Assembly (NCBI GenBank): GCA_965197965.1
Contig: OZ240235.1
Coordinates: forward strand, 1,189,820 to 1,253,819
Direction: 5' to 3'
From: Dehalococcoidia bacterium
GTDB lineage: Bacteria > Chloroflexota > Dehalococcoidia > Lucifugimonadales > QGNO01
DNA: 64,000 bases
The notes beneath the pieces are model-generated. The model searched no databases, was not told the origin of the DNA, and was given only the letters and a program-made list of their open reading frames with translations. Positions within the stretch are counted from its first letter, which is position 1. The number at the start of each line of letters is the position of its first letter. The translations under genes and the position numbers were made by a program. Below are positions 45,930 through 53,871 of the stretch, piece by piece.

Positions 45930-46143
45930 ATCCTTCCTCCTTGGTGAGGAGTGTGTTCTCACCCTATCTTATACCGTCTGCCCCTGCCTAACTTTACACA
46001 CTTATCTTGACACTACCATCCAGGCAGCGGCTGGGGGGTAGGACGAGATAGCCCCTCTCGGCAGCAACACCGACGCCCTTTTATGCTATATTTGGAATGT
46101 GACCGCCAAGCGCCGTACACTTTAGATTCGGAGGACTACGGAA

Positions 46144-46641
46144 ATGATAGGCGACAATCTTCGGGATGCGCTAAACCAGCAGATCACCAACGAGTTGAGC
46201 GCAGCCTACTTCTACCTGTCCATGGCGGGATATTTCGAGTCTTTGAGCCTGCCCGGTTTTGCCAGTTGGATGAGGCTTCAACACCAGGAAGAAACAGACC
46301 ACGCTATGAAGATATTTGACTTCGTGACCGACAAGGGCGGACGCGTGACCCTTGGGCCTATAGACGCCCCCACTTCCGAGTTCGATTCAGTGGAAGCGGC
46401 CATTGGACAGGCTCTGGAGCACGAGCGACGCGTCACCGCGGATATCTACTCTTTGCACGAAGTGGCGCAGCAGGAGCGCGACTACGCCGCTCACGTCCTC
46501 CTTGAGTGGTTCTCAGAGGAGCAGGTGGAGGAGGAGAAGACCATAGAGGAGCTTTTGGACCATGTGCGTATGGTCGGCGACAACGGAGCGGGACTGCTGA
46601 TACTGGATGCGCGGCTGGGCAGCCGCACCAGCGCCGAGTAA
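46144..46641 (+). CDS. ftn: ferritin (non-heme bacterial type)
   Basis: 165 aa. LNQQITNELSAAYFYLSMAGYF, QEETDHAMK, ALEHERRVT ferroxidase-centre residues. Confidence 0.9.
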   Translation: MIGDNLRDALNQQITNELSAAYFYLSMAGYFESLSLPGFASWMRLQHQEETDHAMKIFDFVTDKGGRVTLGPIDAPTSEFDSVEAAIGQALEHERRVTADIYSLHEVAQQERDYAAHVLLEWFSEEQVEEEKTIEELLDHVRMVGDNGAGLLILDARLGSRTSAE

Positions 46642-46658
46642 CGCGGGGAGTCTTCGGT

Positions 46659-47087
46659 ATGACGCAAGACCAGCAGCCGATAGCGCACACGTCTCACACG
46701 GAGATAACCCTTGACCAGCTGGGCAATATGCAGCCGGGGTTGGCGCGTCTGATGGCGGAGGTCAGCGATAGGTACTGGATCATCTACTACGCGGCCAAGG
46801 GCGGAAACTGGAAGCTGGCGGCACTTCAGTCGTCTGAACTGGAAAAGGCGTTCAAGATAGGAGAGGTGACCAGACCCAGGTATACGGCCCATCTGGAGGC
46901 CTTTATCAAGGGGCCGTTGGCAGCCATCAACAAGGCCATTGAGGAACAGGACTGGGATGCCTTTGAGCACAGCTACAATGTAGGCATCACCGCGGCCAAC
47001 GCCTATCACCGTGAATACAACCACGAGGAGATTGTCTGGCAGCTGCCGGACGAGCCTCCCAAGCACCTCAGGCTCACGCCAAGCTAA
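46659..47087 (+). CDS. hypothetical protein
   Basis: ATG 46659, 17 nt after the ferritin stop. 142 aa. The track ORF start 46506 overlaps ferritin and was trimmed. No family recognised. Confidence 0.5.
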   Translation: MTQDQQPIAHTSHTEITLDQLGNMQPGLARLMAEVSDRYWIIYYAAKGGNWKLAALQSSELEKAFKIGEVTRPRYTAHLEAFIKGPLAAINKAIEEQDWDAFEHSYNVGITAANAYHREYNHEEIVWQLPDEPPKHLRLTPS

Positions 47088-47166
47088 CCCCGAGGTGCCT
47101 TCAACAGTTGACAAGAGCAGCCCATAATGCGAATATATGTTCTAGCTCACTAGAGGTCATCTCGCT

Positions 47167-47940
47167 ATAGCATCGACGATTGAATGGACGGACGAAACCT
47201 GGAACCCGGTCACGGGGTGCACGCGGGTATCCCCAGGGTGCGACCACTGTTACATGTTCGCCCTGTATCCACGGCTGATGGCAATGGGCGTGCCAGGGTA
47301 CGAGAGCGATCCGCGTGATGTGCGGCTGTTGCCGGAGAGACTCGAGGCTCCCCTAAGCTGGGCGAAACCCCGTCGCGTCTTCGTCAACAGCATGTCGGAC
47401 GTTTTCCACCCACGTGTACCCTACGACTTCATCAACGACATCTTTGACGTGATGCGTGATGCGGCGGAGCGGCGAGGGCACGTCTTCCAGGTCCTCACAA
47501 AGCGGCCTGGGCGAGCCGTCGGCTGGTGGAAGGCCAACGAGGCCCGCTACGGAGGCGAGTGGCCAAACGGTGTTTGGATTGGCACCTCAGTAGAGAATCA
47601 GAAATACGCGCCGCGCATCGCGGTGCTGGCGCGGCTGCCGGCAACGGTGCGCTTCGTGTCCGCGGAGCCCTTGCTTGGGGAGGTAGACCTCCGGCAGTGG
47701 CTTCACGCCGGCGTACTCCATTGGGTGATAGCCGGAGGGGAGAGTGGGCCGAGAGCGCGGCCAATGGACTTGGAATGGGCGCGAGACCTCCGAGACCAGT
47801 CTATTGAGGCAGGCGTAGCGTTCTTTCTCAAGCAGCTGGGCGGCCGCCGCGGCAAGCGGTCGGGAGAAGAAGCGACGATAGATGGGCGCATGTGGCGTGA
47901 GTTCCCAGAGCTGATAGAAGGAAAACCGGATGCCGCCTAG
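47167..47940 (+). CDS. phage Gp37/Gp68 family (DUF5131, three-Cys-motif) protein; no canonical start codon
   Basis: The frame is open from 47146. The conserved N-terminus IEWTDETWNPVTGCTRVSPGCDHCY lies upstream of the first ATG (47254). Between the upstream TAG (47143) and 47254 there is no ATG/GTG/TTG. ATA at 47167 sits 10 nt after AGAGG, where homologs would have the start. Confidence 0.7.
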   Translation: MASTIEWTDETWNPVTGCTRVSPGCDHCYMFALYPRLMAMGVPGYESDPRDVRLLPERLEAPLSWAKPRRVFVNSMSDVFHPRVPYDFINDIFDVMRDAAERRGHVFQVLTKRPGRAVGWWKANEARYGGEWPNGVWIGTSVENQKYAPRIAVLARLPATVRFVSAEPLLGEVDLRQWLHAGVLHWVIAGGESGPRARPMDLEWARDLRDQSIEAGVAFFLKQLGGRRGKRSGEEATIDGRMWREFPELIEGKPDAA

Positions 47941-49024
47941 AACGACAACCTGGCCTCTTGACCCGCACACCAAAGGCAAGCACATGGTGCTAAAGCACTA
48001 CATGGGAGCATTGCTACCTATCTTGACCAGTTGGAACGGACGGGTTCTATTTATCGACGCATTCGCAGGGCCTGGCGAATACTCAAACGGAGAGCCTGGG
48101 TCACCCGTCATAGCGTTGCAGGCGCTGATTGACCATCGCGACAGAGATCGAATCCGGAGTGAAGTCAACTACTTTTTTATCGAGAAAGACGAAGCTCGGA
48201 GCAAGCACCTTGAAGAGGCTCTTGGAGAGCTTCAGCCATCGCTGCCTCCCAACTGCAACTACGAAGTCATCAACTCGACGTTTGACGAAACGCTCTCAGG
48301 TGTTCTCGACAATATCGACCAACAGAACGCCCGTCTAGCTCCCGCATTTGTGATGATCGACCCGTTTGGTGTCTCCGAGACGCCGATGAGTACCATTGGA
48401 AGGATACTGAAGAATCCCCAATCGGAAGTCTACATCTCGTTCATGTATAGGGATATAAACAGGTTTAGGGAACATCCTAATTTTGAAAGACACCTAGACG
48501 AACTGTTTGGTTGTTCAAGATGGCGGCAAGGCATAGACTTGGCCGAAGGTAAGGAGAGAAAGGACTTCTTCTATAGCTTGTACAAGGATCAACTTAAGGC
48601 CAACGGAGCTAAGTACGTCGTACACTTTGAACTATACGAGGCGCAGCAACTAGTCTACGCAATCTTCTTTGGCACTCAACAGCTAAAAGGATGCGACAAG
48701 ATGAAGCAGGCAATATGGAAGGTCGCGCCGTTCGGTGATTTCAGATTCCGCGGGAGTCAACTTAGTCAATTTGTACTTGGGGAAGGACTGGTTGATTTAA
48801 GCCTCCTTGAGAAGGCACTTCAAGAGCAGTTCCGCTCGAGAGGATGGCAGAAAATAGAGGACGTGGAAGACTTTGTGAAGTCCGACGCCACAGGCTTTCA
48901 TTCTGGCCATCTCAAGCGCAAGACTCTCACCCCGATGGAGAAGAACGGCAAGATAGAAGTGGAACGTCCCCCAGGTAGAAGCAAGGCATACTTTTCTGAT
49001 GGAACACGTATTCTTTTCCTGTAA
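47930..49024 (+). CDS. tcmP: three-Cys-motif partner protein TcmP
   Basis: 364 aa. W.LDPHTKGKH.VLKHYMGALLPIL......FIDAFAGPG.Y matches the TIGR04474-type N-terminus (from memory). Overlaps the Gp37 gene by 11 nt. AT-richer. Confidence 0.7.
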   Translation: MPPRTTTWPLDPHTKGKHMVLKHYMGALLPILTSWNGRVLFIDAFAGPGEYSNGEPGSPVIALQALIDHRDRDRIRSEVNYFFIEKDEARSKHLEEALGELQPSLPPNCNYEVINSTFDETLSGVLDNIDQQNARLAPAFVMIDPFGVSETPMSTIGRILKNPQSEVYISFMYRDINRFREHPNFERHLDELFGCSRWRQGIDLAEGKERKDFFYSLYKDQLKANGAKYVVHFELYEAQQLVYAIFFGTQQLKGCDKMKQAIWKVAPFGDFRFRGSQLSQFVLGEGLVDLSLLEKALQEQFRSRGWQKIEDVEDFVKSDATGFHSGHLKRKTLTPMEKNGKIEVERPPGRSKAYFSDGTRILFL

Positions 49025-49105
49025 TGGAGCATAAAGGGCAGGCTAGAATTTACTACTGCCCTGAACCCCCTTGTCTCTTTGCCTGTTTACGACCAAAATA
49101 CAGCA

Positions 49106-49783
49106 ATGCTCCTCGTCATAGACACCTCTACCAGATACGCCGGCGTCGCCCTTGCCAGCGAGACGCGGATTCTCCAGGCCGCTCACTGGCGCTCCCGGCA
49201 AAACCACAGCGTGGAGCTCCTTCCCACCATCGAATCTCTGCTGCAACGAGAGTCGACATCCGTGGAAGAACTGACCGGTGTTGCCGTCGCCATCGGCCCC
49301 GGCGGATTTAGCGCCCTGCGAGTCGGCATCAGCGTCGCCAAGGGCCTTGCTTGGTCCTCGGACCTACCCCTGGTTGCCGCCACCACCCTTGAGATGGAGG
49401 CCTTCCCCTATATTCAGGCGGGACTGCCCGTCTGCGCCGTGCTAGACGCGGGCCGTGGACAGGTAAGCTGGGCACTGTTTGAAGCTCGTGGAGATCGAAT
49501 AGCGCAGACCTCCGAGGAGGCCATCGCCACCCCTCAGGAAATCCTTCAATCGCTTTCCGGCCCCTCTATTCTCTGCGGTGAAGCATTGGAGTTGCACCGG
49601 GAGGCGTTCACCGCCGGCATGCCGCCTCACGTCAAGCCGGCGCTTCCCTACCTGCCCGGCCAGAGACTGCTTTCGCTTGCCTATCTTGGCCTATCCAGGC
49701 TTCAGGCCGGGCTGACCGTCGACGTACTCTCCGTACAGCCCCTCTACCTTAGGCGTCCCACAATCACCGAGCCACGGCGCTAG
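49106..49783 (+). CDS. tsaB: tRNA t6A biosynthesis protein TsaB
   Basis: MLLVIDTSTRYAGVALA..., AVAIGPGGFSALRVGISVAKGLA. ATG 49106 (the track start 49079 is TTG). Confidence 0.8.
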   Translation: MLLVIDTSTRYAGVALASETRILQAAHWRSRQNHSVELLPTIESLLQRESTSVEELTGVAVAIGPGGFSALRVGISVAKGLAWSSDLPLVAATTLEMEAFPYIQAGLPVCAVLDAGRGQVSWALFEARGDRIAQTSEEAIATPQEILQSLSGPSILCGEALELHREAFTAGMPPHVKPALPYLPGQRLLSLAYLGLSRLQAGLTVDVLSVQPLYLRRPTITEPRR

Positions 49784-50827: not shown

Positions 50828-51922
50828 ATGTCTACTGCCAAGCCCCGTGTGGTCGTCGCCATGAGCGGCGGCGTCGATTCCTCCGTTGCGGCCCTCCTCC
50901 TCAAGGAGCAGGGCTACGACGTAGTGGGCGTTACCATGCGCCTGTTCCCCTATGATGAGGACAACGCCCTCACCCAGTACAACAAGGGGTGCTGCACCCC
51001 GCAGGACGTGGAAGACGCCCGGCGCGTCTGCCAGATCATCGGCGCTCCCCACTACCTGATGAACTTCGAGCGCGAGTTCCAGCAGTTCGTCATCGACTAT
51101 TTCTGTGACGAATACGCCCGTGGACGCACCCCGCACCCCTGCCTTGCCTGCAACGATAAGATCAAGTTCTCCTTCCTCTTCCAGCGCGCCATTGCCCTGG
51201 ACGCCGGATACGTCGCCACCGGCCATTATGCCCGTGTCCATGAACAAGACGGCGCATACCGGCTTCTCAAAGGCATAGATCAGGCCAAGGACCAGTCCTA
51301 CGTCCTCTTCACGCTGCGCCAGGAGGAGCTGCGACGCACTCTGCTGCCCGTGGGCTGGTACACCAAGCCGCAGATCCGCGACTTTGCTCTTAACGCCGAC
51401 CTGCCCGTGGCCGGCAAGCCTGACAGCCAAGAGATATGCTTCATCCCGGACGGCGATTACCGCTCCTTTATCAAAGAGCGCGTTGTTCCCTCTCCCGGCG
51501 AAATTGTGGACACGGAAGGCAACGTTCTTGGCTGGCATAACGGTGTCCAAGACTTTACCGTCGGGCAGCGCCGCGGCCTGGGAATCACCGCGGGCAAGCC
51601 CCTGTTTGTTCTCGGCATAGACGCCCAGCGGCATCGAGTGATTGTTGGCGAAGCGAAAGACCTGCTCAGCCATGCTCTGCAGGCTTCACAGGTCAGCTTC
51701 ACAGGCGGCGCTCCTTCAGGCCCTGTCCAAGTCGACGCCAAGATTCGCTACAAGGCTTCCGAGGCGCCTGCCGTCCTCTACCCCAGCGGTGACTCCGCTG
51801 TCATTCGCTTCCAAACCCCTCAGCGCGCCGTCACGCCCGGCCAGGCCGTCGCCTTCTACCGCCAAGACGAGCTCATCGGCGGCGGCATCATTGAAGGCCC
51901 CCTCTTGGATTCGCTGGCGTAA
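50828..51922 (+). CDS. mnmA: tRNA 2-thiouridine(34) synthase
   Basis: ATG 50828. VVVAMSGGVDSSVAA PP-loop, GCC.PQD, CN..IKF, DQSY.L. The track ORF start 50492 is antisense to rsfS. Confidence 0.95.
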   Translation: MSTAKPRVVVAMSGGVDSSVAALLLKEQGYDVVGVTMRLFPYDEDNALTQYNKGCCTPQDVEDARRVCQIIGAPHYLMNFEREFQQFVIDYFCDEYARGRTPHPCLACNDKIKFSFLFQRAIALDAGYVATGHYARVHEQDGAYRLLKGIDQAKDQSYVLFTLRQEELRRTLLPVGWYTKPQIRDFALNADLPVAGKPDSQEICFIPDGDYRSFIKERVVPSPGEIVDTEGNVLGWHNGVQDFTVGQRRGLGITAGKPLFVLGIDAQRHRVIVGEAKDLLSHALQASQVSFTGGAPSGPVQVDAKIRYKASEAPAVLYPSGDSAVIRFQTPQRAVTPGQAVAFYRQDELIGGGIIEGPLLDSLA

Positions 51923-51934
51923 CCCCTCCACCTG

Positions 51935-51971
51935 TTGCCCGCTTGCCTTTTTGCCCGCTTGCCCGTCTGCC
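51935..51971 (+). repeat. 37-bp TTGCCCG-rich repeat, left of vapBC
   Basis: TTGCCCGCTTGCCTTTTTGCCCGCTTGCCCGTCTGCC, 34/37 identical to 52782-52818. Related tracts at 24600-24640, 35860-35890 and 35985-36010. Confidence 0.85.
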
Positions 51972-52021
51972 GTAAGCAACCTACACTATTCCCATGTCCC
52001 CGGAGCACTGGGGCTTCTCCC

Positions 52022-52417
52022 CTATTGGACTGACGGATTGCCCGATATGGCCGCGAATGTCTGGTCAAAGGTCTTGATGTCTCGAACCCCACGCCTTCTG
52101 CAACTGGCTAGGTGGCAGAGGTCCCGGGCCTGTAGCGCGGGATATTGCTCGTGGAGTTGACGGGCCAGAGCCACGTCCGCCTCATCCAACGGCCAAACCT
52201 CAACTCCGGCGCTTGCCATCAAACCTAGCGTCGCATCCAAGGTTTGCAGTCTTCCGGTGGGTAAATAAGCATGGGCCAGTTCCTGCATTACCTCTGCTGA
52301 AGTACACAGCGGCATCCCACTCCGATTGGCTTCGATGAAGAAGTCCTGGGCGTATGTCCGGAGTGCGTGAGGGCGTCCCACCGCGTACATGAACACGTTG
52401 GTGTCAACGAATATCAC
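52022..52417 (-). CDS. vapC: PIN-domain toxin (VapC family)
   Basis: 131 aa. MIFVDTNVFMY with acidic PIN residues. 4-nt overlap with the upstream antitoxin gene. Confidence 0.8.
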   Translation of the reverse strand: MIFVDTNVFMYAVGRPHALRTYAQDFFIEANRSGMPLCTSAEVMQELAHAYLPTGRLQTLDATLGLMASAGVEVWPLDEADVALARQLHEQYPALQARDLCHLASCRRRGVRDIKTFDQTFAAISGNPSVQ

Positions 52418-52689
52418 GTGCCCGTCACTCCTGCCCCGCGGGACTTGTTCATAACGCGCAGGTGCTCATCCCAATCCGGTTCCGTCTCCGGACCATCCAG
52501 CGCTGCGCAAGTCCGGAAGAACTCCTTTACCTCATCCGGGGACTCGAACACCTTGACGCGCTGGCGTGCTTCAAGGCGCTCTCGGGCGGCTGCACGCAAC
52601 CACGCGCTGAGGGACATGCCCTCCTGCCGGGCCTGGTGAACGAAGCGGTCTCGGTCTGCATCCGGCATCACCAACTGCACTCTGGCCAT
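52414..52689 (-). CDS. VapB-type antitoxin candidate
   Basis: 91 aa, upstream of and overlapping vapC. ...RDRFVHQARQEGMSLSAWLRAAARERLE is RHH-like. Confidence 0.6.
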   Translation of the reverse strand: MARVQLVMPDADRDRFVHQARQEGMSLSAWLRAAARERLEARQRVKVFESPDEVKEFFRTCAALDGPETEPDWDEHLRVMNKSRGAGVTGT

Positions 52690-52781
52690 ATCTACCTCCA
52701 GATGACCTACGGTGAGTGTGTAACATCGTTACACATACGCTTTTCGAAGTCAAGCGACTGTACGAGCCTACTACTGCCCTT

Positions 52782-52818
52782 TTGCCCGCTTGCATTTTTG
52801 CCTGTTTGCCCGTCTGCC
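52782..52818 (+). repeat. 37-bp TTGCCCG-rich repeat, right of vapBC
   Basis: TTGCCCGCTTGCATTTTTGCCTGTTTGCCCGTCTGCC. Confidence 0.85.
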
Positions 52819-52869
52819 CCGACATTTCCACCTTGTAACCCCAACTCGCCATCGTGTATCGTCTCATCC

Positions 52870-53871
52870 ATGAAGCCGACCTGGTTAGAAGAGAACCTCC
52901 TCATCCAGAAAGGCTACTCGCTCATTGCCGGAGTTGACGAAGTGGGACGCGGCCCCCTGGCCGGCCCAGTCGCCGCTGCCGCCGTCATCCTGGACCCCGG
53001 TGCTGACCATGACTGGTATGAAGACCTGGACGATAGCAAAGTCGTTCCTCCCCGCAAGAGGCAGCAACTGGCCAAGCTGATCCATGCGCATGCCAGCGCC
53101 GTCAACGTCGCCTTCGTTGAGTCGCAGGAAATCGATGCCTTCGGCATTGTCCCCGCTACCAAAACGTCCATGGCTCGCGCCATCGCCGGGCTCAAGGTCA
53201 AACCCGACCACGTCCTCATCGATGCCGTTCCGCTGCCTGAGATCAGCATCCCCTTCCGCGCCGTGATAAAGGGCGACGCTCTCTGCCGCTCCATAGCCGC
53301 CGCATCCATTGTGGCCAAGGTCGCCAGAGACCGCCGCATGAGGCAGGAGCACCGCATTCATCCCGCCTACGGCTTTTCCAGGCACAAGGGATACGCCTCA
53401 CCCGAGCATCTGAAGAAGCTCGATGAGCTTGGCCCCTGCTCCATCCACCGCCGATCATTTGCTCCTATTCGCAATCTTCTCCAGCCTCCCGCCGACGTAT
53501 CTGCCAGCACTCGCTCCCGTGGCCGCGCCGCCGAAGCCGCAACTGCCGTCTTCCTGGAATCGCGGGGGTATCGCGTACTGGAGCGCAGTTTCACCTGCCG
53601 CTGGGGAGAAATCGATCTCATAGCTCAGCACGGCGAAACCATCGCCTTCGTAGAGGTCAAGTCCCGTCGCAATAGCTCCATGGGTACTCCGTTCGAATCC
53701 ATAACGCGGAAAAAGCAGCGCAGTCTCGTACTTTCGGCACAGGAGTTCATTCAACAGCGCAGCTTGGAGAATGCGGCGTGGAGAATCGACGTTGTCTCGG
53801 CGCGCTTGAAAACCTCCAACGATGGCGCTTATTCCTTCGAGCACTTGGAGAATGCCGTCATGGGCTTTTGA
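52870..53871 (+). CDS. rnhB: ribonuclease HII fused to a YraN-family (UPF0102) endonuclease domain
   Basis: ATG 52870. RNase HII motifs IAGVDEVGRGPLAGPV, DDSK, SIAAASIVAKV. The C-terminal ~120 aa GRAAEAATAVFLESRGYRVLERSFTCRWGEIDLIAQHGETIAFVEVKSR matches YraN. One continuous frame. Confidence 0.85.
   Translation: MKPTWLEENLLIQKGYSLIAGVDEVGRGPLAGPVAAAAVILDPGADHDWYEDLDDSKVVPPRKRQQLAKLIHAHASAVNVAFVESQEIDAFGIVPATKTSMARAIAGLKVKPDHVLIDAVPLPEISIPFRAVIKGDALCRSIAAASIVAKVARDRRMRQEHRIHPAYGFSRHKGYASPEHLKKLDELGPCSIHRRSFAPIRNLLQPPADVSASTRSRGRAAEAATAVFLESRGYRVLERSFTCRWGEIDLIAQHGETIAFVEVKSRRNSSMGTPFESITRKKQRSLVLSAQEFIQQRSLENAAWRIDVVSARLKTSNDGAYSFEHLENAVMGF

Follow-up and report, generated by a model that had tools for sequence, protein, structure and literature searches.

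The closest described relatives of the gene pair discussed here are PDC-M30 and PDC-M41, which belong to the PDC systems, a set of 145 candidate systems discovered inside BREX, DISARM or type I restriction-modification loci (10.1101/2024.01.29.577857). The pair lies in a 64,000-nucleotide stretch of a Dehalococcoidia bacterium genome (GenBank assembly GCA_965197965.1, contig OZ240235.1; the whole stretch is called the window below). It joins a DUF5131 (Gp37/Gp68) gene of a radical S-adenosylmethionine (SAM) superfamily subgroup (47167..47940, + strand; 257 codons, ATA start, TAG stop at 47938-47940) to tcmP, which codes for a three-Cys-motif partner protein of 364 aa (47930..49024, + strand; TIGR04474). 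A sequence-only reading of the same DNA had proposed both family assignments, an 11-nt overlap of the two genes and a CxxxxxxCxxC motif in the first protein, and all of these hold. Hidden Markov model searches place the 257-aa ATA-initiated product in PF07505 at 279.7 bits (cutoff 28.9, profile positions 2-243 of 243) and residues 12-265 of TcmP in TIGR04474 at 192.8 bits (cutoff 53), the overlap spans 47930-47940, and the motif is present as C18-X6-C25-X2-C28. PADLOC files the pair as PDC-M30, its M30A (TcmP, 187.1 bits) and M30B (DUF5131, 264.3 bits) matches being adjacent and co-oriented; DUF5131 also matches PDC-M41B (274.8 bits) and phrog_2045. Related copies in other genomes are flanked on one side by a DrmMI-like or type IIG methylase and on the other by a DrmD-like HKD-SNF2 helicase, which matches the route by which the PDC systems were discovered, whereas the window copy stands outside any defence system.

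Our search of the literature on DUF5131, TcmP, PF07505 and PDC-M30 returned radical-SAM classification and survey mentions only and no functional study, which agrees with the earlier description of a recognised pair that has no assigned biochemical function. The module is a typical member of a known, functionally blank family. On its sequence, the locus is shown to be an intact two-gene operon for a DUF5131 radical-SAM-type protein and TcmP. What is new here is an ATA start codon conserved over species-level lineages under selection, the truncation of the protein in public databases, and the interchange of M30- and M41-type partners at one locus.

The ATA start codon of DUF5131

In the DUF5131 frame, a TAG stop at 47143-47145 is followed by CTC ACT AGA GGT CAT CTC GCT ATA GCA TCG ACG ATT GAA TGG, and the first in-frame ATG, GTG or TTG after that stop is the ATG of Met30 (47254..47256, + strand). 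As the sequence-only reading had pointed out, the conserved N-terminus lies 5' of this ATG, and the ATA at 47167 stands 10 nt after a Shine-Dalgarno-like AGAGG (47152..47156, + strand). The stop and a difference of frame rule out a fusion with, or coupling to, the upstream open reading frame (ORF). Homologues that are 72-90% identical begin with MASTIEWTDETWNP or MPSTIEWTDETWNP, and the ATA aligns codon for codon with their ATG, as it does with the ATG of homologues opening MASTIEWTD. The predicted N-terminal peptide of the ATA-initiated protein is (M)ASTIEWTDETWNPVTGCTR.

The same ATA is found in seven syntenic Dehalococcoidia assemblies (the window, L001, L002, L008, L010, L089 and L090), which differ in sample and assembly. 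The six besides the window were taken from separate ENA or NCBI assemblies, L008 and L010 being GTDB species representatives and Dehalococcoidia metagenome-assembled genomes (MAGs), and the tsaB-ndk flanks of the ATA genomes diverge by 5-14.5%. In the syntenic genome L006, an ATG stands behind the same Shine-Dalgarno sequence at the same spacing. The DUF5131 tree places the seven ATA sequences in one clade with the ATG-bearing L006 as its sister, and a single G-to-A change in the common ancestor of this multi-species clade of uncultured Dehalococcoidia would be the simplest history. Among 86 loci, the codon at position 1 was ATG in 44, GTG in 3, TTG in 2 and ATA in 4, with two more ATA cases added afterwards; the remaining ones carry a different triplet, and most of these have a canonical start 1-2 codons further upstream. 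Searching JGI metagenomes for the 5' region in two pattern scans gave zero matches.

The pattern of substitution indicates that the region behind the ATA is translated. Among the ATA genomes, pairwise dN/dS (the ratio of non-synonymous to synonymous divergence) of DUF5131 is 0.07-0.13, at dS values of 0.18-0.40 that are similar to those of tsaB and ndk. Over codons 2-29, the ATA-ATA pairs show 5-7 synonymous and 0 non-synonymous differences, except for the window and L001, which are identical there. All 9 variable sites between the ATA and Met30 fall on third codon positions, for which the chance expectation is about (1/3)^9. Because its changes are synonymous only, the segment 5' of Met30 appears to be translated in the DUF5131 frame. 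The ATA is the sole near-cognate initiator at or 5' of codon 3, and the only alternative is the ATT at codon 5 (47179), which is a less likely start since it lies 21-22 nt from the Shine-Dalgarno sequence and codons 3-4 vary only synonymously. Met30 has no preceding Shine-Dalgarno sequence. Taken together, these data support ATA 47167 as the real start of DUF5131, with initiation at AUA read from the evolutionary pattern, and they point to strong purifying selection on the gene since the change from ATG to ATA. The sequence-only reading had left three options for this codon, namely a rare start, a recent inactivation or a sequencing error; the first has stood and the other two have not, for the reasons weighed in the last section.

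The ATA start is the source of a systematic annotation error, in that public gene calls truncate this DUF5131 lineage and drop the three-Cys motif. The public protein (P0004, in NCBI and ENA) has 228 aa and is 100% identical to the window product from Met30 on. Its 90%-identity cluster has 17 members, and all 15 that are listed (P0004 and P0391-P0404) are called at 213-232 aa rather than 257. Gene callers thereby delete the catalytic motif, with at least 17 sequence variants affected.

In E. coli, AUA initiates at about 1-2% of the level of AUG (bioRxiv 10.1101/063800). In Listeria rsbW, changes of ATG to ATA reduce translation and shift the stoichiometry of the partners, and the efficiency order measured after changing ATG to ATA or ATT was ATG > ATA > ATT (PMC13068326). 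The GTG of E. coli lacI is another dosage-tuning non-AUG start (PMC11445065). The window gene resembles these cases in that one base at the start codon would lower one partner and shift the stoichiometry. It differs in that its ATA is fixed across several species-level lineages and belongs to a candidate defence enzyme, whereas the others are laboratory or strain-level cases. The AUU of infC is a natural non-AUG start that tunes dosage. In the window, tcmP keeps an ATG with its own Shine-Dalgarno sequence, GAAGGA (47917..47922, + strand), 7 nt 5' of ATG 47930, so that its translation may not depend on that of DUF5131; the ATA clade is accordingly expected to make little DUF5131 relative to TcmP, if these start signals behave as predicted.

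Exchange of the TcmP partner

Comparison of the syntenic genomes revealed a replaceable cassette, bounded by breaks in blastn homology, that takes in the whole of tcmP together with the last ~15 codons of DUF5131 (47895..49058, + strand). In L006, L089 and L090, this cassette has no DNA homology, and a short TcmP of the PDC-M41A type takes its place. The replacement genes code for 234-279 aa, are members of TIGR04474 (200-202 bits) and do not have the winged helix of the long form. Long and short TcmP are 26% identical, both partner types belong to TIGR04474, and the L006 partner matches PDC-M41A at 275 bits. The long form has turned over as well. When the window is compared with L008 or L010, the dS of TcmP is ~1.0 but that of DUF5131 is 0.18-0.32, like that of the flanks, and the jump in dS falls at TcmP codons ~40-60, just past conserved motif I.

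From these alignments, DUF5131 is shown to be inherited vertically with its housekeeping flanks, while recombination has exchanged the tcmP half for distant alleles, some of them of the short class. The same DUF5131 lineage is paired with an M30A-type partner in the window and with M41A-type partners in L006, L089 and L090. PDC-M30 and PDC-M41 partners are interchangeable at this one orthologous locus and thus look like partner variants of one system. That the window DUF5131 scores slightly higher on M41B than on M30B fits pairing with a partner of either type. Turnover of TcmP alleles is expected for a specificity subunit or one exposed to conflict, and would speak against a fixed cellular RNA substrate.

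The base composition of tcmP bears on the same question. The sequence-only reading had remarked that the tcmP half is AT-richer, and this is so in the window, where tcmP has a GC content of 0.495 and a GC content at third codon positions (GC3) of 0.562 versus 0.628 and 0.725 for DUF5131, nearby genes having a GC3 of 0.70-0.77. However, GC and GC3 of TcmP lie below those of its DUF5131 partner almost everywhere, with a mean GC3 gap of 0.11 over 73 loci. The low GC of tcmP is a family-wide trait and not a local oddity. As a local mark of recent transfer, the AT-richness is therefore only partly supported, yet the dS values do back allele replacement.

Predicted proteins, gene neighbourhoods and leader

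SFLD curates DUF5131 as a subgroup of the radical SAM superfamily. Its CX6CX2C motif, in place of the canonical CX3CX2C spacing, is the one reported for the subgroup, Megacluster-5-2 of RadicalSAM.org, with spore photoproduct lyase (5-3) as a neighbour in the same megacluster (PMC9477430). The window protein carries this motif in GCTRVSPGCDHC (47218..47250, + strand), a predicted [4Fe-4S]/SAM cluster site whose C18, C25 and C28 are invariant in an alignment of 49 homologues. It also matches TIGR04471, the model for radical SAM mobile pair protein A, but weakly (E 5.7e-7). Structure prediction and Foldseek searches, which the sequence-only reading had suggested, gave unequal results for the two proteins. 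The AlphaFold2 (AF2) model of DUF5131 has a predicted local distance difference test score (pLDDT) of 69 and a confident beta/alpha core that may resemble a triosephosphate isomerase (TIM) barrel, and Foldseek returned weak TIM-barrel matches only (best E 4.5e-3), lipoyl synthase included. Sequence and profile searches of the PDB with DUF5131 and TcmP found no solved relative of either protein.

The TcmP model (pLDDT 80, predicted template modelling score 0.78) has a strand order that fits the seven-strand, Rossmann-like class I methyltransferase fold. A methyltransferase-like domain (~12-265) is followed by a winged helix (~291-364), seen in the model as a confident helix-helix-helix-hairpin unit, and residues 283-349 give a sub-threshold GMT-wHTH match. 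Foldseek found 115 PDB matches at E<=1e-3, and among the 50 listed nearly all are class I methyltransferases, including Trm5a, fibrillarin, METTL16, TrmR and catechol O-methyltransferases. The best is 2oo3 (E 9.3e-6), of the DUF519/RlmJ family of 23S rRNA m6A2030 methyltransferases. TcmP shares with this family a glycine-rich motif I and an acidic-Pro-aromatic motif after beta4, and differs from it in lacking a sequence-level match, in having DPF or DPY for DPPY, in its extra winged helix and in its obligate radical-SAM neighbour.

Motif I of TcmP, D43-A-F-A-G-P-G49 (48056..48076, + strand), corresponds to the SAM-binding glycine loop of class I methyltransferases; D43, F45, G47, P48 and G49 are invariant in 55 homologues, and the short form has DGFAGAG at that place. 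A motif IV-like D144-P-F-G147 (48359..48370, + strand), which follows predicted strand beta4 and resembles the (D/N)PP(Y/F) of amino-methyltransferases, is invariant in the same alignment, with DPY in the short alleles, and E85 at the end of the second strand is invariant too. This layout would correspond to motifs I, II and IV of amino-methyltransferases and predicts a catalytic role. Overall, the model suggests that TcmP has an RlmJ-like class I fold that would bind SAM, followed at the C-terminus by a winged helix, and the latter suggests DNA binding.

A GTDB scan with the TcmP alignment yielded 80 loci, mostly from Dehalococcoidia, Caldilineaceae, Longimicrobiales and Gemmatimonadota, plus some gammaproteobacterial MAGs, and in 79 of them DUF5131 was present in the same locus. 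It usually lies immediately upstream and co-oriented, and sometimes downstream or convergent. The pairing is near-obligate in a TcmP family that is very large (3,892 clusters at 50% identity, E<=1e-3). The sequence-only reading had held that the pair travels on phages and islands, which is supported for part of the family. One defence-island copy has a DUF5131 87% and a TcmP 68% identical to those of the window, with homology limited to 47162-48960 of the window. Its island contains, in order, AbiEii/AbiEi, a type IIG or DrmMI-like methylase, the pair, an HKD+SNF2 helicase and a TIR protein (PDC-S66). Across the 80 GTDB loci, an HKD-SNF2 helicase occurs in 12, mostly directly 3' of tcmP, and a type IIG-like gene lies upstream in 8. 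Obvious defence islands account for about a quarter or fewer of the homologous loci, and many loci lie among housekeeping genes. Immediate neighbours were counted by family for the first 41 GTDB loci, so that the enrichment of defence genes is semi-quantitative. The defence association of the pair is real but partial.

The arrangement of type IIG or DrmMI-like methylase, DUF5131, TcmP and HKD+SNF2 (DrmD/DrmC-like) helicase recurs (L004 1757-11947; L007, L013, L016 and L039), often preceded by AbiEi/AbiEii and followed at its other end by the TIR protein (PDC-S66). These four genes may form a larger, DISARM-like system, with the pair belonging to its core instead of riding along as a passenger. 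Three near-identical islands (L003 6764-9437, L005 7224-7861 and L004 6764-7858) have identical DUF5131 genes, and TcmP is intact in one only. In L003, it is interrupted by insertion sequence (IS) elements with DDE transposases, and in L005 it is fragmented. TcmP may carry a cost in these islands, or may be under relaxed selection there.

In phages, DUF5131 occurs in 180 records, mainly of Mycobacterium, Gordonia and Burkholderia phages. TcmP occurs in 11 of them, the other 169 having no detectable TcmP, and 10 Gordonia phages carry the pair. In the temperate Gordonia phage ThankyouJordi (L087 4980-6847), DUF5131 (gene 41) and TcmP (gene 42, annotated as a methyltransferase) are convergent, with the integrase (gene 38) to one side of them and the immunity repressor (gene 43) to the other. 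The gap between integrase and immunity repressor is a typical site of lysogenically expressed genes in actinobacteriophages.

Upstream of the pair in the window, a promoter-like region read from the sequence (47101..47136, + strand) contains TTGACA at 47108-47113, a 17-nt spacer and TG-c-GAATAT at 47128-47136. TTGACA and TGCGAATAT are unchanged in all 8 syntenic genomes of the alignment, in which the intergenic bases around them vary. A promoter of its own, of the form TTGACA-N17-TGcGAATAT, is thus probable for the module. A sequence scan also picked an overlapping candidate, TCAACA-N16-CATAAT (47101-47128, + strand), both elements of which vary in that alignment. An inverted repeat, TTCTAG-N4-CTAGAG (47140..47155, + strand), covers most of the Shine-Dalgarno sequence and the whole in-frame TAG stop. 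Across 7 distinct sequences, its stems pair in 100% of cells, with the loops CTCA, TTCG, TTCA, CACG and CACA, and L006 has a shortened version. These 7 sequences contain no compensatory double changes and no covariation, and the 5' region as a whole folds no better than its shuffles (z = +0.84). The repeat could be an RNA hairpin or a DNA operator. No riboswitch or other known RNA was indicated in the leader, as Rfam gave no match at E<=1 in 46500-49500.

The pair lies where the sequence-only reading had placed it, between ferritin-associated genes and tsaB; a ferritin gene (PF00210), a 142-aa ORF and tsaB (TIGR03725) were all found, followed by ndk, rsfS and mnmA. The ferritin gene (46103-46658) is present in the window, L001 and L089, and deleted or reduced in L002, L010, L090 and L006. 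Family searches with the 142-aa ORF returned no match; it is under purifying selection (dN/dS ~0.11-0.13). Next to mnmA, a VapBC-like toxin-antitoxin pair lies on the - strand (52022-52689), with a 131-aa PIN protein (52022-52417) and a 91-aa partner (52414-52689). The segment that holds it (51900-52806) has no counterpart in syntenic L008 and L010, which points to an insertion. Going by how Pfam annotates the L001 orthologue, the gene at 52462-53871 apparently codes for an RNase HII domain fused to a UPF0102 (YraN-like) one.

Candidate functions and their alternatives

Our assessment leans, by a modest degree, towards a SAM-dependent nucleic-acid modification or defence system with a radical-SAM subunit kept at low dosage, and is much more confident about the family identities and the start codon. 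That DNA in particular is modified is a more tentative proposal, possible rather than probable. In such a system, TcmP would bind SAM and would select and present a nucleic-acid target, most likely DNA, which it may also methylate. DUF5131 would then act on the same site by a [4Fe-4S]/SAM-derived radical, and together the two would leave a modification or lesion by which self is told from non-self or phage is restricted. In wybutosine biosynthesis, Trm5 and then TYW1, a class I methyltransferase and then a radical SAM enzyme, act on the same base. The likeness to our pair is an analogy only, in that both join a class I methyltransferase fold to a radical SAM enzyme and Trm5a is among the best structural matches of TcmP; DUF5131 is not homologous to TYW1, and sequential action of the pair is purely a conjecture. 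With the AUA start, DUF5131 synthesis would fall to a few percent of what an ATG would give while TcmP keeps its ATG and Shine-Dalgarno sequence, and the scarcity of the radical-SAM subunit would presumably limit cost or self-damage in a long-resident chromosomal copy.

Several observations weigh against this picture. PADLOC lists PDC-M30 as a candidate system, and most immediate neighbours of the pair in other genomes are housekeeping genes, with scattered defence genes. No nuclease, helicase or other effector adjoins the window copy, which is flanked by housekeeping genes (ferritin, tsaB, ndk, rsfS and mnmA), and no DISARM, BREX or restriction-modification core genes were found around it. 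Its long descent by vertical inheritance would suit a domesticated function better than a mobile defence island. The efficiency figures for AUA, a start read here from evolution, come from E. coli and Listeria rather than from Chloroflexota. The radical-SAM chemistry of DUF5131 is taken from its classification, its Cys loop being of low confidence in the AF2 model and its Foldseek matches weak. As to TcmP, Pfam gave no RlmJ match and the sub-threshold GMT-wHTH alone; an hhalign comparison of its profile with an RlmJ sequence placed the motif I regions together as expected, but at a non-significant probability of 1.8%; and its motif IV is DPF or DPY, not the canonical DPPY.

Some of these points suit the strongest of the alternatives, that the pair is a domesticated housekeeping enzyme for rRNA or tRNA modification among translation-related genes and not a conflict system, which we regard as unlikely but worth taking seriously. 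The best structural relatives of TcmP are RNA methyltransferases (the RlmJ family, Trm5a, fibrillarin, METTL16 and TrmR), the locus is beside tsaB, mnmA and rsfS, and housekeeping neighbours are found at many homologous loci. The vertical inheritance, the dS equal to that of the flanks and the strong purifying selection also fit, as does the locus itself, where no mobility genes or flanking repeats were found around the pair and a search for att-like repeats gave short chance repeats only. But the genomic position differs in almost every other genome, and the swap of long and short partners at one site, at 26% identity and with dS of ~1-2, is unexpected for a fixed RNA target. Copies also occur in defence islands and at prophage moron positions, TcmP is disrupted by IS elements or fragmented in two of three near-identical islands, and its winged helix suggests DNA binding.

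A conflict system of another kind, which we consider distinctly unlikely, would be a toxic or abortive-infection module in which TcmP is an inert sensor or DNA-binding adaptor and DUF5131 is a radical effector that damages nucleic acid or depletes SAM. It would draw on the place of DUF5131 in the megacluster of the DNA-acting spore photoproduct lyase, on a weak start codon that would suit a dangerous effector by keeping DUF5131 scarce, and on related copies near AbiE, TIR and nuclease-helicase genes; moreover, the 169 of 180 phage records without detectable TcmP suggest that DUF5131 may act alone. Against it, the invariance of motifs I and IV in 55 TcmP homologues, in both long and short forms, argues for catalysis, the gene that is disrupted in the island copies is TcmP and not DUF5131, and solitary phage DUF5131 genes in lytic gene clusters are hard to square with a self-toxic effector.

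The system with a low-dosage radical-SAM subunit could also be given a more specific form, in which a swappable TcmP with an RlmJ-like methyltransferase fold, in its long winged-helix or its short form, lends target specificity to a conserved radical SAM enzyme related to spore photoproduct lyase, M30 and M41 are partner variants of one system, and the AUA, beyond lowering the dosage, is a switch sensitive to initiation factor 3 (IF3). The radical-SAM subunit would then rise as initiation fidelity drops, e.g., during phage takeover or stress. As a combination, this is quite doubtful.

Inactivation of DUF5131 by the ATG-to-ATA change, which would leave a pseudogene or a 228-aa Met30 protein without the Fe-S motif while TcmP works alone, is very improbable. 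A canonical start is indeed absent before 47254, every public gene call uses a downstream start, and AUA is a poor initiator in E. coli. Nevertheless, the frame is intact in seven ATA genomes, over dS values comparable to those of the housekeeping flanks, and Met30 has no Shine-Dalgarno sequence to serve it. We reject a recent inactivation because dN/dS is low and the codons 5' of Met30 differ only synonymously. The notion that the ATA is a sequencing or assembly error for ATG, raised by a single-base difference from the homologues and by sequences that are MAGs, can be dismissed since seven assemblies from different samples, with differing flanks, many nearby differences and two different partner genes, share the ATA, and since the ATG in syntenic L006 indicates that assemblers could report either base.

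Since this very large family couples a radical SAM enzyme with a methyltransferase fold, working out its function could reveal new nucleic-acid chemistry. The syntenic long-read genomes provide a natural experiment in which one vertically inherited DUF5131 meets at least four divergent alleles of TcmP, which fall into two classes. For the biology of translation in these Dehalococcoidia, the substitution pattern makes DUF5131 what appears to be a clean example, spanning several species, of a bacterial AUA initiation codon that has been maintained.

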